Below are positions 32,821 to 56,497 of a DNA stretch of 56,497 nucleotides, in pieces (position 1 is the first letter of the stretch; every line of letters begins with the position of its first letter). The position numbers and the translations under genes are program-made. The notes beneath the pieces were generated by a model. That model worked only from the letters and a program-made list of their open reading frames with translations, was not told the origin of the DNA and did not search any database. Location: the IMG/VR virus record IMGVR_UViG_3300024517_000001, positions 1 to 56,497 of that record. One strand, given 5' to 3'. The stretch is from a virus. Lineage: Duplodnaviria > Caudoviricetes.

Positions 32821-33548
32821 TCTTCTGCCTCCTCCTTTTGAAATTGTATTATTCTGGGGTAACTATCTATCTGATATCCTTTCGTTAGAACATGATCAAC
32901 ATCATCTTCAAAGAAGCCATTAAAGAAAGGATAGATAATAAGATCTTTATGGTTGCGACTTTCATGTGCCAAGAATTGTAACCAATCCTGATGATGGAAT
33001 ACTGAGACATGAACATTCGTACCATCTTTGAATTTTTTCACAGCTTCATAGCAAGCTACATTTACAAAGACCATCTTCTTGGCATAGGAAAATATTTCTC
33101 TGATGACCCATCCCAGATCTTCTTCAGGTACATGTTCCATAACATCAGTACATATAACTGCATCATACTTCTCTGTAGGTAGTGTTTTAAAATCTTCATA
33201 ACCGGGATCGTAGAGATGGTATGAATCCAGATTCCAGAAATAAGGAAGAGGTTCCTTTATAACATCTGTTACACTTTCAAAGTGTTCCTGCATATAAAGA
33301 TGTCCCTTCCCACATCCGTAATCAAGTAAGGTTTTACAATTGTTACCTTCCAGAAAATTTTTAATATAACTTACATACTTGACAAGACTTCTGCCATTAA
33401 AGATACCATACCCAGAATCATGCATGTCTTTGTATTCTTTTAGAAGAGATCTATATCTTTTGGAAGGATTATCTCTACTAAGTTTTGGATCAAAAGATAT
33501 AGGCTTACGATTAACTGTTTTACCTACAACTTCAATATCACTTGGCAT
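32814..33548 (-). CDS. class I SAM-dependent methyltransferase
   Basis: LLDYGCGKG, DAVICTDVMEHVP. Confidence 0.85.
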   Translation of the reverse strand: MPSDIEVVGKTVNRKPISFDPKLSRDNPSKRYRSLLKEYKDMHDSGYGIFNGRSLVKYVSYIKNFLEGNNCKTLLDYGCGKGHLYMQEHFESVTDVIKEPLPYFWNLDSYHLYDPGYEDFKTLPTEKYDAVICTDVMEHVPEEDLGWVIREIFSYAKKMVFVNVACYEAVKKFKDGTNVHVSVFHHQDWLQFLAHESRNHKDLIIYPFFNGFFEDDVDHVLTKGYQIDSYPRIIQFQKEEAEEC

Positions 33549-35919
33549 TATAGTACTCCTCAAATGCAGGTCTGTTTTCTTTTTCCAGAGCAATATCCCA
33601 GAGATCTGCTATCATTGTGTTCTCTCCGTGAAAAGTAAGAACTCCTTCCAATCCTTCATCTGAGAATACTTTCTCACAATCTTGAGCCATTGCCAGTAAC
33701 TCACCAGTAGTCCAGTAAGTTTTCTCTTTGACATTGACCTGTATGTACTTAGGTTTGGGAACTTCTCCACCATCTATATCACCTGTAGTCTCAGTCTTCT
33801 CTTCATTGGTAGGCTCATCCCGACAACATTCAAAACCAAACAGATGTATGTCCCTGAAGCCCATTGTATGCAGCATACCTATACCTCTCATGGCAGCACA
33901 TGTACCACCAGTAATGAGAGTAGATCCTTCAGGTATGCCCAGATCAGAGGAAAGCTTTACCTGTCTGTTCTGTATCTGATGTCCTTTCTCTGTATCTGTT
34001 CTGAGTGAGTCAGTAAAGGCATGCCATCCCCAGATCTGTGCTTTGTTTTCTATGAGATGATTTGTCACAGAAGGATCAGTCATAGAGGCTACAAAGAATC
34101 TGGTATCAGGATCTACTTTCTTAAACAAATCTTTACGAACAATGTTATGTGTAGACATACCAGTAATAGGTCTGGGATCTAGAATAATACAACCCCAAGG
34201 CTGTATGCCATGTTCAAGTAGTTTAGGGTAAGCATGTTTCACCGTCACTACTTTTACATCAGGATTTTCAATGGTAAATTCTTTTAACTTTTTATAATCC
34301 AGATAAGGACCAGCAGAAATAACAGCAGCCCTGTCTTTATGTACAGGATGTTTAGTAATCCACTTCTTCGGATCAATCAAGGTCATGTTAGAATTAATAT
34401 TATTCTTTATATAATCTTTAGGGACACAATCTCTGGGATGTACTATGATAGGTACTCTCTTCAGATCTTCTGGTATGTCTTCTAACTTAGAGTCATGAAG
34501 AAAAACCACAAGATGAGTATTACCACCGCCAACCACTTTATCACCTGAAGGTAATATATATTTTCTTGTTGCCGTAGATTCATCAAAGTTAGTCCATCCA
34601 TCTTTCGTTGTTTCCTGTGCATCCACTTTCTTTGTAGGTACATCATCAAATACATGTTTTACTCCTTGATATTTTTCAGGAGGAAGACCTTCATCATCAT
34701 CCGTAGTAAAGTAATGATCAGCTACAACTACTGGTACATGCTTAAGAACTTTATATTCTGCTTCAACAGTCTCCCGGCTGTTGCCGCTTCCCATCAAAGC
34801 AAAGTCAACGTCACTTATTTCCTCAGTCTTTAACATGCGATCAAGAGTTTCTCTGACATTTCCCTTATACAATTCAAAGGTAAATGTTTTATCTTCCTTA
34901 TCCTTTATATGCTTTGCAAATTCCTCAAACCTATTCCTTACAGCCTGTATAGTATTATGAGGTTTGACATTAAACTCTACATGATCTGTGTCTGTAGTAG
35001 CATCCTCAAACAAATCAAAGCCAATGTAATGAACCTTCTCCTTATGTTTGAATGCAGCCAAGGCCATCTCAATAGCCCTCCCTCCATTCCATGTTCCGCT
35101 TTCCAGTATACATTCAGGCTTGTAGAACCTGATGATGTCTGCCAGTTGTCTATATCTATTAGGAAGTATGTCAGGAGATGTCTCAGTATCCGACAATTTA
35201 ATAATGCGTTGGCCATCCTTATCTCTGACGGCCATGTTCTTTCGATCTTCCAGACTGACAATCATCTCTGAGATAGGGGAATGTTCAGGATCAATCTCAT
35301 GTACCTGCATACCATGAGCTTCATAGATAGTTCTTAGTCTATTCAGAATAAAAGTATCATGCCACTCCCTGTAGTTGGAGAACTCTCCTGAAATAAAAGC
35401 TCCTCTTAAATCTCCCAGTAAATCTACTGGCGTTTGTCTGCACAAATTATAGGCAGTTAGATAAGCCTCATCCTTTAAAGTAATCAAGTCTACCTTATCA
35501 GAGTTCTCTGGAAAGATAGATTCAATATCTTTAACAGATATATTCTTGGTATTGATGACACTGGGATCAAGCCAGATTAACCAACAACCACTACTCTCAA
35601 AGGCACACTCAGTCAGAGCTATAACTTTAGGAACAAACTTGATAGGATCAAGTATCTCATTATAAGGTATAGTATTTCCTTCAGTACCATTATGTTTACT
35701 AAATTCTTTTAGAAATTTAGGATAGTCCACTACCTCCATCAGGTTATGGTAGTGGATGTTAGCAGCTTTGGGAAGAGAATAGTTTGATAGATCAAGATTG
35801 TAATAGTAACAATGAAAGTCTATTTTATTTTCCCAGTTATCCTTGAACTCAGTAAGAAGTATACTAGTACTCTGTTGAAGAAAAGCCTCATCAAAGGCAG
35901 TTACAATTTTATATTTCAT
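33538..35919 (-). CDS. multidomain protein: glycosyltransferase-like + methyltransferase + DUF115/Maf-like domain
   Basis: N-terminal KVIAL...LIWLD...EWHDTFI; ILESGTWNGG...YIGFDLFE; VISAGPYL...MGFRDIHLFGFE. Confidence 0.65.
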   Translation of the reverse strand: MKYKIVTAFDEAFLQQSTSILLTEFKDNWENKIDFHCYYYNLDLSNYSLPKAANIHYHNLMEVVDYPKFLKEFSKHNGTEGNTIPYNEILDPIKFVPKVIALTECAFESSGCWLIWLDPSVINTKNISVKDIESIFPENSDKVDLITLKDEAYLTAYNLCRQTPVDLLGDLRGAFISGEFSNYREWHDTFILNRLRTIYEAHGMQVHEIDPEHSPISEMIVSLEDRKNMAVRDKDGQRIIKLSDTETSPDILPNRYRQLADIIRFYKPECILESGTWNGGRAIEMALAAFKHKEKVHYIGFDLFEDATTDTDHVEFNVKPHNTIQAVRNRFEEFAKHIKDKEDKTFTFELYKGNVRETLDRMLKTEEISDVDFALMGSGNSRETVEAEYKVLKHVPVVVADHYFTTDDDEGLPPEKYQGVKHVFDDVPTKKVDAQETTKDGWTNFDESTATRKYILPSGDKVVGGGNTHLVVFLHDSKLEDIPEDLKRVPIIVHPRDCVPKDYIKNNINSNMTLIDPKKWITKHPVHKDRAAVISAGPYLDYKKLKEFTIENPDVKVVTVKHAYPKLLEHGIQPWGCIILDPRPITGMSTHNIVRKDLFKKVDPDTRFFVASMTDPSVTNHLIENKAQIWGWHAFTDSLRTDTEKGHQIQNRQVKLSSDLGIPEGSTLITGGTCAAMRGIGMLHTMGFRDIHLFGFECCRDEPTNEEKTETTGDIDGGEVPKPKYIQVNVKEKTYWTTGELLAMAQDCEKVFSDEGLEGVLTFHGENTMIADLWDIALEKENRPAFEEYYNAK

Positions 35920-40961: not shown

Positions 40962-41420
40962 TTACGAAGCAAAAGGAATATCTTCAACTTCATTATTAGT
41001 ATAGCCTCCTTCGACTACACCAAAGTCGTCCATACTGTACTCAACTAAGTCAGTTACTTGCACTGCATTAAGGTAGCCCTTAACACCACCACCATACACA
41101 GTATATTCCTTGGGGAAATAAGAAACATTCACCTTGGAACCATTCCCTACACGTTTGTCAGAGGGAAACGCATTACGTTGGGAATCCTTAACTGATATAG
41201 CTCTAGGCGTACCATCTTTGGTACGTGCATACTGCTTCAGGGTAACAAAGTCTCCTCTTTCATCACCCTTATTTTTGATGGTAAGACCATCGGCTTCTGC
41301 AACCTTTTTATTCTTAGCATTAAGGTTACAAACTTCTATACTCCATTCACCATCAGGATTGAACTTGGTGTTTGGGGTAATAACATGTGCCCAATAGGCA
41401 TCTCCAGAAATTACACTCAT
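40962..41420 (-). CDS. single-stranded DNA-binding protein (T7 gp2.5-like)
   Basis: VGNGSKVNV, YLNAVQVTDLVEY, acidic tail EDIPF. Confidence 0.8.
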   Translation of the reverse strand: MSVISGDAYWAHVITPNTKFNPDGEWSIEVCNLNAKNKKVAEADGLTIKNKGDERGDFVTLKQYARTKDGTPRAISVKDSQRNAFPSDKRVGNGSKVNVSYFPKEYTVYGGGVKGYLNAVQVTDLVEYSMDDFGVVEGGYTNNEVEDIPFAS

Positions 41421-53479: not shown

Positions 53480-53677
53480 CTAACGGTTAACATTAAAGAT
53501 TGGCCTAATACTAGAGCCAAACTTATTAAAAGTTTTGCCAGTAAACACATAGAAGCTACGCTTTCTAAAGTGCAGACCAACTGAGCTATCGCCAACGCTT
53601 ACGCCATAGCGATTTTCTACTGTCCTAGCTGGTTTAGAAAACCAACCTGTCTTATTGAGGATTTGAAATGAGGTCAT
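53480..53677 (-). CDS. hypothetical protein
   Basis: GGAG RBS after pseudoknot leader. Confidence 0.6.
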   Translation of the reverse strand: MTSFQILNKTGWFSKPARTVENRYGVSVGDSSVGLHFRKRSFYVFTGKTFNKFGSSIRPIFNVNR

Positions 53678-53696
53678 TTCATACTCCGTTAGTGGT

Positions 53697-53725
53697 GTCA
53701 GCATCAAACCCTGCCAACTTGGGGT
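53697..53725 (-). ncRNA. predicted H-type pseudoknot leader A1
   Basis: ACCC-caa-GTTGGCA-GGGT-ttga-TGCTGAC; homolog at 55053-55082 with compensatory changes. Confidence 0.6.
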
Positions 53726-53728
53726 ACT

Positions 53729-53780
53729 TTAATTAACTCCCTCTAGTTACGTAAACACTTAACTAGAGGGATTTAATTAA
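53729..53780. repeat. hairpin element copy 5
   Basis: TTAATTAAcTCCCTCTAGTTA-cgtaaacact-TAACTAGAGGGAtTTAATTAA. Confidence 0.93.
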
Positions 53781-53787
53781 GAAGATC

Positions 53788-53961
53788 TTAGTATACATAT
53801 CCTCGCCAAGATTTCACATGATCATTTATGGCTTTGGATATAGAAGCTTTCAAATCTTCCTTTTCGTTAACTGTTAAATCGTCACGAAATTCAACAGCTT
53901 TGAGCTTGTCAATTCGATCCTGTAGTGGAACACTAGAATAAGGTTTCCATGTTCTATTCAT
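53788..53961 (-). CDS. hypothetical protein (57 aa)
   Basis: manual translation MNRTWKPYSSVPLQ..., AAGGAG RBS. Confidence 0.55.
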   Translation of the reverse strand: MNRTWKPYSSVPLQDRIDKLKAVEFRDDLTVNEKEDLKASISKAINDHVKSWRGYVY

Positions 53962-53972
53962 TGGCAACTCCT

Positions 53973-54236
53973 TTAATTATTTAAGTCACGCATCAGGTAT
54001 TCACCTGATTTTATTTTAGCTTGCGTTTCTTTCTTAGTCTCACTGAGAAATCTATTTCTATATTTCCCTGTAGTTTGTGAGTAATCCCACTTGTTTTTAT
54101 CAAGAAAGACTTGGCCTCTGATAATCACTACAATGAGAGTATCATAGGATTGAAACCATTTCTTGTCACCATCAGTTACTACAAACTGATTAACTACTGG
54201 TTGCCCAGTATTTCCTATCATGTTGGAAACATACAA
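53973..54236 (-). CDS. phage hypothetical protein
   Basis: NQF...FQSYDT...WDYSQTTGKYRNRFL; AAGGAG RBS after element 6. Confidence 0.7.
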   Translation of the reverse strand: MYVSNMIGNTGQPVVNQFVVTDGDKKWFQSYDTLIVVIIRGQVFLDKNKWDYSQTTGKYRNRFLSETKKETQAKIKSGEYLMRDLNN

Positions 54237-54252
54237 TGTCTTTCTCCTTTCT

Positions 54253-54305
54253 TTAATTAACCCTCTGTAGTTACGTAAGTACTTAAACTACAGAGGTTTA
54301 ATTAA
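54253..54305. repeat. hairpin element copy 6
   Basis: TTAATTAAcCCTCTGTAGTT-acgtaagtactta-AACTACAGAGGtTTAATTAA. Confidence 0.95.
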
Positions 54306-54308
54306 TAT

Positions 54309-54587
54309 TTAAAAAGCCCACCATTCTTTGATGCACTTATCACTGGTTTTAATATGACTAACGTCAACAACTTGCCAGTGGCCTACTTCCTCATCTTTAC
54401 AATCTGCTGTAAAGATACCGTCAACATCTTCCTTTACAAAGCTATGACCAGCAAAGAAACTCATTGCTTTGATAGCTTCTATAGCTTCTTCTTTTGTAAT
54501 GAAAAAGGTTCCTATTCTTTTCTCGAATTCCCAATTATCAATCTCGTTAGGATCATCGAAAAAAGAACAATGCACTACCATAAACAT
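54309..54587 (-). CDS. hypothetical protein
   Basis: AAGGAG RBS. Confidence 0.65.
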   Translation of the reverse strand: MFMVVHCSFFDDPNEIDNWEFEKRIGTFFITKEEAIEAIKAMSFFAGHSFVKEDVDGIFTADCKDEEVGHWQVVDVSHIKTSDKCIKEWWAF

Positions 54588-54745
54588 AGTCTTTCTCCTT
54601 TCTTTAATCTATACCAAGTGAAGTTAATAAACTCCACTTGGCAGCCTAAATTCTCCCAACACCGCATAGCTTTCATCTCTTTAGGCAGAGCCTACTCACA
54701 TTTTTTTTGGTGTTTACTGTTGTCACATTGGACAATCTCCTTTAC

Positions 54746-54797
54746 TTAATTACTAAGTATTAGTTACGTAAATACTTAACTAATACTTAGTAATTAA
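54746..54797. repeat. hairpin element copy 7
   Basis: perfect 21-bp arms TTAATTACTAAGTATTAGTTA around cgtaaatact. Confidence 0.93.
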
Positions 54798-54799
54798 AG

Positions 54800-54827
54800 T
54801 GAGCAGTTTAATGACTTGCTCAGGTCA
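54800..54827 (-). ncRNA. predicted compact H-type pseudoknot B
   Basis: TGAC-c-TGAGCA-a-GTCA-ttaaac-TGCTCA. Confidence 0.5.
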
Positions 54828-54833
54828 GCCTAC

Positions 54834-55034
54834 TTAGGCTGCTTTCCGTGAGGTTTCTACACCTTCAGGGACTGCATCAAGGTTCTTAATGACCTTGAAA
54901 GCCTGTACTGTGTTACCCTCTTTGAGGGCATGCAGTACTGCTACTGGAATACCAGCATCAGCTTTGTCTTGGAAACCATCTTCTTTGATGGTCTGCCATT
55001 TATTTGCTTTCGTCAAGAACTGAAATGTTTTCAT
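54834..55034 (-). CDS. hypothetical protein
   Basis: MKTFQFL start after GGAG RBS and pseudoknot leader. Confidence 0.6.
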   Translation of the reverse strand: MKTFQFLTKANKWQTIKEDGFQDKADAGIPVAVLHALKEGNTVQAFKVIKNLDAVPEGVETSRKAA

Positions 55035-55052
55035 AAGAAAACTCCGTAATGT

Positions 55053-55082
55053 GTCGATCATCAAAGCCTGACCAACTTGGCT
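55053..55082 (-). ncRNA. predicted H-type pseudoknot leader A2
   Basis: AGCC-aa-GTTGGTCA-GGCT-ttga-TGATCGAC. Confidence 0.6.
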
Positions 55083-55086
55083 ATAT

Positions 55087-55138
55087 TTAATTAACCCTCT
55101 GTAGTTTCGTAAGTACTTAACTACAGAGGTTTAATTAA
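55087..55138. repeat. hairpin element copy 8
   Basis: TTAATTAAcCCTCTGTAGTT-tcgtaagtactt-AACTACAGAGGtTTAATTAA. Confidence 0.95.
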
Positions 55139-55144
55139 CTTCAA

Positions 55145-55321
55145 TTAAGAAGGAAACGTGTACACTGTAGCCTCTGGATTAAGAGCAAAGAACTCAGAAG
55201 CTTCAGCGAGTGCTAAAGCACCGTATGCAGCTTCAAGATCACCAGAAGCTTCATGAGAGAGAGCATCAGCAAAAAACTTATCAGCATATTCAGTGTATTC
55301 AGTAGTCGTCAATAAAACCAT
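55145..55321 (-). CDS. small acidic hypothetical protein
   Basis: GGAGG RBS; single gene between elements 9 and 8. Confidence 0.6.
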   Translation of the reverse strand: MVLLTTTEYTEYADKFFADALSHEASGDLEAAYGALALAEASEFFALNPEATVYTFPS

Positions 55322-55974: not shown

Positions 55975-56153
55975 ACTCAATTAAGATAAGAAGAACTTCA
56001 ACCTCGTCATCGATCTGTCAAGCCTCGTCAAAATCCTAGGGATTTCGTCATGTGTCAAAGATCTCTGATCTTCCTATGCACAAGTAAAATCCCTTGGATT
56101 TTCAAAGACTTATCGATAGGTTGAAGTATTTAGCAAAGCTAGGGATTGGGTTT

Positions 56154-56182
56154 TAATTACATCCTCTGGATGATTTTGTCAA
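56154..56182 (-). promoter_or_regulatory. candidate early sigma70 promoter (TTGACA-N17-TAATTA)
   Basis: consensus -35, weak -10, points into the early arm. Confidence 0.45.
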
Positions 56183-56230
56183 CCTTCCCCTAAACTTCGT
56201 TTAAACTTAGCCAATCCAACTACTAAACTA

Positions 56231-56271: not shown

Positions 56272-56462
56272 GTTTAAACCCCCAGAAATCAGGGGAATTT
56301 CCTCGTAATGTGCAGGTAGGGGGGGGAAAGATTCGTGTGCGCCTATATATATATAAAACAGACCTCTCAAAAAGTTTCAAAAATCTACGGCCTATTCATC
56401 AAATAGAAAATAAAATAATATAGTGATATATATAGCACATGTCGGGATACTTAAGTATAATT

Positions 56463-56497
56463 ACAGGTACTTACACAGGTACTTACACAGGTACTTA
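56463..56497. repeat. 12-bp tandem repeat, identical to 1-35
   Basis: direct reading. Confidence 0.95.

Follow-up and report, generated by a model that had tools for sequence, protein, structure and literature searches.

A small covarying pseudoknot upstream of the ribosome-binding site in early-gene leaders of uncultured marine phages

Introduction

Leader pseudoknots acting on translation initiation are already known, to our knowledge from only a few bacterial and phage mRNAs. The subject of this report is a small H-type pseudoknot (hereafter the knot) that occurs twice on the minus strand of a complete uncultured virus record, IMG/VR IMGVR_UViG_3300024517_000001 (Duplodnaviria; Caudoviricetes), whose 56,497 bp, with direct terminal repeats, were analysed at full length and are referred to as the window. 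The motif itself is not in Rfam 15, and each of its two copies in the window (A and B) stands in an intergenic leader, a few nucleotides before the Shine-Dalgarno (SD) sequence of a small early gene.

Several described systems invite comparison. The activator pseudoknot of the IncB and IncI-alpha plasmids (repA/repZ) lies just upstream of the ribosome-binding site (RBS) and activates translation; it forms between a distant hairpin loop and an RBS-adjacent site and is controlled by antisense RNA, whereas the phage knot is local and compact and is not known to have an antisense partner. Pseudoknots of the rpsO type dock on the platform of the 30S subunit, bind protein S1 or a repressor, include the SD and AUG in their fold and mimic rRNA sites; the SD and AUG of the phage leaders lie, by contrast, outside the knot. 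Folded leader elements with pseudoknots are described for rpsO (S15) and other ribosomal-protein mRNAs in a report (PMC7708055) that also credits S1 with high-affinity binding to H-type pseudoknots. The same report describes the +42 mRNA of Escherichia coli tisB, in which a 5' pseudoknot (stems of 9 and 5 bp) and a single-stranded stretch make up a standby site that acts ~100 nt from the sequestered RBS of this toxin mRNA, the knot being needed for binding of 30S/S1 (PMC7708055). The phage leaders resemble tisB in combining, upstream of the RBS, an H-type pseudoknot with an adjoining single-stranded stretch, and differ from it in the short distance between knot and SD (7-9 nt; 17-24 nt to the AUG) and in the sizes of stems and loops.

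In size and place, the knot is also like the H-type pseudoknot of gene 32 in phages T4 and RB69. According to its description (PMC535899), the T4 operator consists of a pseudoknot of ~28 nt, located 5' of the RBS, and an adjoining unstructured segment, longer than 40 nt, that has UUAAA/UAAA repeats and contains the RBS; this operator is bound by the gene's product, a single-stranded DNA-binding protein (SSB). The cores of the knot measure 25-30 nt across homologues, with both stems supported, but their spacer to the AUG is only 17-24 nt, there are no UUAAA/UAAA repeats in their tails, and the proteins encoded downstream are three unrelated small proteins, without Pfam or PHROG family and not SSBs. 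Covariance-model scans of the window found no knot copy at its gp2.5-like SSB gene (40962-41420). Small H-type riboswitches (preQ1-I, SAM-II/V, guanidine-III, fluoride) share the size range, the topology and the location in a 5' leader near the SD; they are set apart from the phage knot by its lack of a covariance-model match, its SD outside the knot and its variable loop 3.

Two pseudoknot leaders in the window

A first-pass annotation, made from the sequence of the window alone, had pointed to two homologous leaders with compensatory changes, each carrying a pseudoknot directly behind a hairpin element and ahead of an ACGGAGU stretch and an AUG. Both leader strings are present on the minus strand as it wrote them, with the following parts (a and b denote the 5' and 3' strands of a stem).

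53697..53725, minus strand: pseudoknot copy A, whole core, 29 nt (from sequence, descriptor match, covariance-model matches and pair counts)
53725-53722, minus strand: copy A stem 1a, ACCC
53721-53719, minus strand: copy A loop 1, CAA
53718-53712, minus strand: copy A stem 2a, GUUGGCA
53711-53708, minus strand: copy A stem 1b, GGGU
53707-53704, minus strand: copy A loop 3, UUGA
53703-53697, minus strand: copy A stem 2b, UGCUGAC
53684..53687, minus strand: copy A SD, GGAG, 9 nt after the knot and 6 nt before the AUG at 53677
55053..55082, minus strand: pseudoknot copy B, whole core, 30 nt (from the same four kinds of evidence)
55082-55079, minus strand: copy B stem 1a, AGCC
55078-55077, minus strand: copy B loop 1, AA
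55076-55069, minus strand: copy B stem 2a, GUUGGUCA
55068-55065, minus strand: copy B stem 1b, GGCU
55064-55061, minus strand: copy B loop 3, UUGA
55060-55053, minus strand: copy B stem 2b, UGAUCGAC
55042..55045, minus strand: copy B SD, GGAG, 7 nt after the knot and 7 nt before the AUG at 55034

Both leaders can be folded as an H-type pseudoknot with a stem 1 of 4 bp, a loop 1 of AA or CAA, a stem 2 of 7-8 bp and a UUGA loop 3. The compensatory differences first reported between the copies are there, namely a C-G pair of stem 1 exchanged for G-C and a U-A pair added to stem 2 of copy B, and so are the G-U pairs in both copies, which restrict the fold to the transcribed strand. The copies are intergenic, each following an upstream stop codon and a hairpin and preceding SD and AUG. 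A -1 frameshift-stimulating pseudoknot was rejected on the grounds of this location, the copies not being inside overlapping open reading frames (ORFs) downstream of a slippery heptamer.

A structural descriptor of a generic H-type fold matches the window at copies A and B and nowhere else, and the two covariance models used in searches, R1 and R2, score 85.2 and 31.5 bits on copy A and 17.1 and 14.2 bits on copy B. The window alone is nevertheless weak evidence, since a somewhat narrower descriptor gave 29 raw matches when both strands of 1.51 Mb of unrelated loci were scanned. Nested minimum-free-energy folding of the leaders (66-68 nt) was not above shuffles either, 131/200 and 64/200 of which were at least as stable. 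The decisive support for the predicted knot is covariation in homologues, not folding of the window.

Covariation among homologues

The homologue set consists of related uncultured marine phage contigs and one unrelated phage, and holds 16 distinct versions of the core. Near-identical contigs are already informative: one of them (L023) has three substitutions in stem 2b, all of which preserve pairing, and a stem 1 pair can be followed across such contigs from A-U through G-U (L025) to G-C (L023). A primase search for related phages yielded 80 loci out of 284 stretches, and L226 and L241 were recognised by a covariance model of copy A as carrying the knot, upstream of the orthologue of P0002 (P2), the ORF behind copy B. 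When metagenomes were scanned with a P2 alignment, 27 loci with a P2 orthologue of the FKVIKN type were recovered, and the knot is upstream of it in 27/27. In one clade (L293), there is a second knot copy before a P1-like gene, as in the window clade, P1 being the ORF behind copy A. Candidates that were set aside comprise matches of model R1 in L196 and L232, dismissed as chance because they fall inside the primase gene, and most of the yield of a viral_contigs scan with the knot 5' half (54 stretches), in which only 4 matches, from 3 near-identical contigs, are real and the others chance.

Since MAFFT alone misaligned the cores, alignment was guided by a covariance model built from eight ungapped cores, which describes stem 2 only and to which the remaining cores were aligned. 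The resulting alignment (A15) has 17 rows, 16 of them distinct. A search of the homologues for broken stems, the check proposed at first pass, found standard pairs of the full pseudoknot in 177/178 cells. The lone unpaired cell belongs to window copy A in the common register. A slip of one base, to the register of the first-pass annotation, brings in A53725 and restores pairing. Changes on both sides affect 8/12 pairs, in 47 cells, while G-U pairs, which are mismatches on the opposite strand, account for 13/178 cells. In controls in which the structure was slid along the alignment, only 23-48% of cells pair. The covariation score of 0.649, against 0.282 in shuffles, was reached by 0/500 of them, a count that overstates independence, given the relatedness of the sequences and an alignment that the model had fitted to stem 2. 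Stem 1, which is absent from the search model, was assessed on a 15-core alignment (A10), in which 59/60 cells are paired, 2/4 pairs have changed on both sides and the score was reached by 1/500 shuffles; this support amounts to about three independent events.

Stem 2 exists in five unrelated sequences (GUUGG(U)CA, GUCAGCA, GCCAGUG, GCUGCUA and GGUGCGG), whereas the columns C3, C4, A5, G7, G15 and G16, together with the G of loop 3 (G21), are invariant. Stem 1 is mostly ACCC/GGGU and loop 3 mostly UUGA. The early claim that UUGA is invariant holds for the two window copies and fails among homologues, in which UAGA, UUGU, AUGA and a single G are found as well. With both stems kept by compensatory change in 16 distinct homologues, the structured RNA motif that had been postulated stands, and it is almost certain, on this comparative evidence, that the leaders form a real H-type pseudoknot.

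A reading without any RNA element is hardly credible. It would explain the likeness of the leaders by shared coding sequence (an N-terminal extension from an in-frame UUG or AUG in UUGAUG), or by a recent duplication combined with chance complementarity, and both window copies do have an in-frame TTG/ATG 30/27 nt upstream of the accepted AUG with no intervening stop. The upstream ATG is missing, however, in the L226, L222 and L301 types, and the TTG is a TAG in L025; ACGGAGU is read in one frame in copy A and in another in copy B; in L301, the possible frame is set differently against the motif; and stem 2 has wholly changed in sequence with its pairing kept at 100%.

The position of the knot is as regular as its fold. 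Its 3' edge is 7-9 nt from the SD and 17-19 nt from the AUG in 11/15 distinct family cores, and the other 4/15, all of the L222 subtype, have 13 nt to the SD and 24 nt to the AUG. The spacer between knot and SD is A/C-rich and single-stranded.

Two observations concern the margins of this distribution. In L287 (1430-1460), just upstream of an intact copy, there is a partial tandem duplication of the knot 5' half, with ACCCAAGCC present twice. The farther P2 relatives, of the FKVIRN type (11 loci, at most 44% identity), have no knot. Short CA-rich leaders stand in its place at FKVIRN-type loci (e.g. CAACAACCAGCCA), some with a small hairpin, and such knot-less leaders are found upstream of P2 orthologues in L231, L263, L267, L269 and L271-L273. 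They are reminiscent of ACA-type translation enhancers.

The same core in an unrelated phage

A wider pattern, in which stem 1, loop 1 and most of loop 3 were fixed and a downstream GGAG was required, matched 8 stretches in viral_contigs, 6 of which are family members, while the other 2 (L301 and L305) are identical in sequence and come from a different phage. The latter has 47.5% G+C and matches neither the window nor the family loci in tblastx; no protein detectably shared with the family was found in 12 kb of L301, and no nucleotide match for the region. Its stem 2 is new and perfectly paired (GGUGCGG/CCGCACC), and its spacing is that of the family, with 8 nt from knot to GGAG and 6 nt further to the AUG (18 nt from knot to AUG). 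The ORF behind it (P0003, 65 aa) is unrelated to P2 and P1 (hhalign probabilities 0.2% and 0.1%). The control for this pattern was a set of 185,579 prokaryote species, each represented by a single genome; its 13 matches there have only 1-4/7 stem-2 pairs and are chance.

The covariance models of Rfam 15 gave 0 matches across the whole window when the gathering score was required. With E up to 10 allowed, region 53600-55200 gave 30 matches, none to a riboswitch family and none on the knots. No description of the motif was found in the literature; the IMG/VR catalogue of 8,495 candidate RNAs (PMC10690425) may include it or the hairpins.

A conserved pair of small genes downstream

The ORFs behind the two window copies are the following.

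53480..53677, minus strand: P0001 (P1), 65 aa, pI 11.4, behind copy A
54834..55034, minus strand: P0002 (P2), 66 aa, FKVIKN[AL]D family, behind copy B

Neither has a Pfam or PHROG family. These genes had been said to look unrelated, which is true in so far as there is no BLASTP similarity between P0001 and P0002, and incomplete in that P2 and P1 occur as a conserved pair of genes in relatives. There, a P1-like gene comes immediately after P2, to the point that P2 stop and P1 start overlap as TAATG in the L222 type (L222:3677-4074). P1 proteins are strongly basic throughout (pI 11.4-11.9). In the window and L293 clades, the pair has been split (the two genes are ~1.1 kb apart in the window), and the split P1 has its own knot copy and P2-like first codons. 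The likeness covers the first ~7 codons of P1 and P2 (M.[TS]FQ[IF]L), so the duplicated module extends into the ORF and consists, in the two window copies, of hairpin, knot, SD and first codons. That a split P1 is equipped in this way suggests selection to hold P2 and P1 under the same control. In L226-type loci, the knot is retained and no P1 homologue was found in the loci examined.

The P2 model (pLDDT 78) has only weak gelsolin-like matches, within noise (best Foldseek E 0.27, best VIA Z 4.4), the P1 model (pLDDT 56) is too poor for a structure search, and the ESM Atlas returned only unnamed viral clusters (0.79-0.80). Among 50,697 phage records, there is no homologue of P2 (L226 type) or of P0003.

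How the knot might act

The alternative offered at first pass of a translational operator or enhancer appears to be the best class of explanation for the knot. Within this class, we lean tentatively, at somewhat less than an even chance, towards an element that acts in cis on translation initiation by docking the 30S subunit or protein S1. Stem 2 stacks directly on stem 1 in a compact knot, whose position places it at the 5' border of the mRNA stretch covered by the 30S subunit. The occurrence of one core in unrelated phages, ahead of genes that are themselves unrelated, makes it probable that the knot is read by a factor common to these phages, most likely the host 30S subunit via S1 or its platform. 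Together, the folded knot and the open spacer might then offer a site for docking or standby, through which initiation on small early genes is raised or secured. The module would be portable, having been copied with the first few codons before P1 once P1 had separated from P2, and the P2/P1 pair would so stay under the same control. Standby help may be needed at copy A in particular, where the AUG is buried: a predicted local hairpin in the gene start region (53659-53687, minus strand) takes up the AUG, whose unpaired probability is 0.00, together with part of the SD.

Besides the inflated independence of the shuffle counts, several points weigh against this docking proposal. (i) The start-site hairpin of P0001 is kept in the near-identical L023 copy and not in other knot types; the AUG is thus buried only in the copy A type, which is a difference from tisB, while SD and AUG are predicted to be mostly open in L305 (AUG 0.98) and partly open in the L226 and L276 types, so that standby is not obviously required. 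(ii) In the L222 subtype, loop 3 is reduced to one G and the spacer grows to 13 nt. (iii) The unrelated phage is one distinct sequence, found with a pattern that itself fixed stem 1 and loops. (iv) Generic S1 binding would be insufficient to explain why the sequence of stem 1, loop 1 and G21 is kept, and the conservation of the core would fit a specific protein or ligand at least as well.

A specific protein is what the main rival invokes, which we regard as possible and less probable than docking, namely repression in trans, of the T4 gene 32 or RegA type, with the knot as translational operator. A phage or host protein on the core of stem 1 and loops would block the 30S subunit 7-9 nt downstream and shut off P2 and P1 together. 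Such gene-specific control would agree with the presence of the knot in only 2/10 of the leaders behind hairpins in the window, with the conserved core nucleotides next to a free stem 2, with the copying of the module to P1 upon the P2-P1 split, with the very basic nature of P1 proteins and with a knot size like that of the ~28-nt T4 gene 32 knot (PMC535899). The three unrelated proteins behind the knot (P2, P1 and P0003) are difficult to reconcile with it, since autoregulation by the downstream product could not be general. The L226-type phages, moreover, keep the knot where no P1 homologue was found, L301 shares no detectable family protein within 12 kb, and the P2 model offers no convincing fold match.

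Readings in which the core binds a ligand fare worse. That the knot is a new, very small aptamer sensing a ligand or the ribosome, a portable translational switch exchanged by unrelated marine phages and put in front of small early genes, is very unlikely; its stem 1, AA and UUGA core would be the binding pocket and stem 2 a free clamp. Highly improbable, too, is a very small riboswitch proper, in which a ligand at the stem 1/loop 1/loop 3 core would tune initiation. The conserved core with its freely covarying peripheral helix, the presence in unrelated phages before unrelated genes and an H-type topology common to several small riboswitch classes would suit it, as against the lack of an Rfam match even at the permissive threshold, the variability of loop 3 and downstream genes without a metabolic hint. 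Nor is there a conserved alternative pairing with SD or AUG: one that sequesters the SD with the knot 5' half exists in copy A only, and is not conserved among knot types.

Whichever factor reads it, the knot is small, sharply defined and supported by covariation, it is found in a widespread group of uncultured marine phages, and an unrelated phage has it equally far from the RBS, all of which makes it a good candidate for a new RNA family. It could serve as a simple model of initiation being tuned by a folded structure that borders the RBS on its 5' side, and it draws attention to two small early proteins that are probably co-regulated, P2 and the highly basic P1.

The knot and the hairpins

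Between 41572 and 55976 of the window, the minus strand has ten intergenic hairpins of ~50 nt, two of which precede the knot copies.

53728..53781, minus strand: conserved-loop hairpin upstream of copy A (element 5), context and separable module
55086..55139, minus strand: conserved-loop hairpin upstream of copy B (element 8), context and separable module
55966, 55379, 55129, 54797, 54296, 53771, 52493, 50950, 46946 and 41625, minus strand: 5' ends of the ten hairpins

They share the apical sequence AGUAC-UUACG and TTAATTAA flanks, and their stems covary (13/21 predicted pairs changed on both sides). With ~20 bp, these stems have a size that fits RNase III substrates. The hairpins of relatives include a second loop class (GAACUUUAGUGA). 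A viral scan with the hairpin-loop pattern was dropped, as it gave single, chance-like matches among the matches listed.

Each window knot is indeed directly behind a hairpin element, with a gap of 3-4 nt. The further proposal that the knot is part of the hairpin system did not survive. In L292 and L300, similarity to the window starts exactly at the 5' edge of stem 1, the hairpin being replaced by other sequence, and in L301/L305 a long hairpin is absent and the knot begins 10 nt past the stop codon upstream of it. The knot is, to judge from its distribution, a module separate from the hairpins, because 8/10 window hairpins are without a knot and four loci have the knot without a canonical hairpin.

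The same distribution bears on the 5' nuclease block that the first-pass annotation had listed as an option, by which the knot, after cleavage at the upstream hairpin, would stop a 5'-3' exonuclease or RNase E scanning and keep the downstream message stable. We consider it unlikely. In its favour are the placement of the window copies 3-4 nt behind covarying hairpins of RNase III substrate size and the compactness of a knot with coaxial stems and a GC-rich stem 1. It is weakened because the other genes behind hairpins, 8 out of 10, lack the knot, and further by the knots without a canonical hairpin in L292, L300 and L301/L305; the tight spacing between knot and SD, finally, points to the ribosome rather than to a 5' end.

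Genome context

The plus strand of the window encodes terminase, portal and structural genes from position 1 to ~30 kb. From the right end down to ~30 kb, the minus strand encodes small early genes and then a replication set.

Minus strand: T7-like replication set (primase/helicase, Pol A, gp2.5-like SSB, Cas4-type exonuclease and ribonucleotide reductase)

There were 0 matches to RNA polymerase families among the 26 larger ORFs scanned in the window. The closest isolate by primase is Pelagibacter phage HTVC115P (47.8% identity). A 793-aa protein (33538-35919, minus strand), for which there is no PHROG family match, has an MptE-like (6-hydroxymethylpterin diphosphokinase-like) domain at residues 507-700. 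Within the early region, nucleotide similarity to cultured phages is confined to 53973-54236 (minus strand). This part matches phrog_21575 and is 69-82% identical to hypothetical genes in 12 phages of Pelagibacter, of the Skadi and HTVC types. At the right end (56440-56497), there are ~3 copies of a tandem 12-nt repeat (TAAGTACCTGTG), and several promoter-like stretches containing TTGAC lie at ~56000-56200, between these repeats and the first hairpin.

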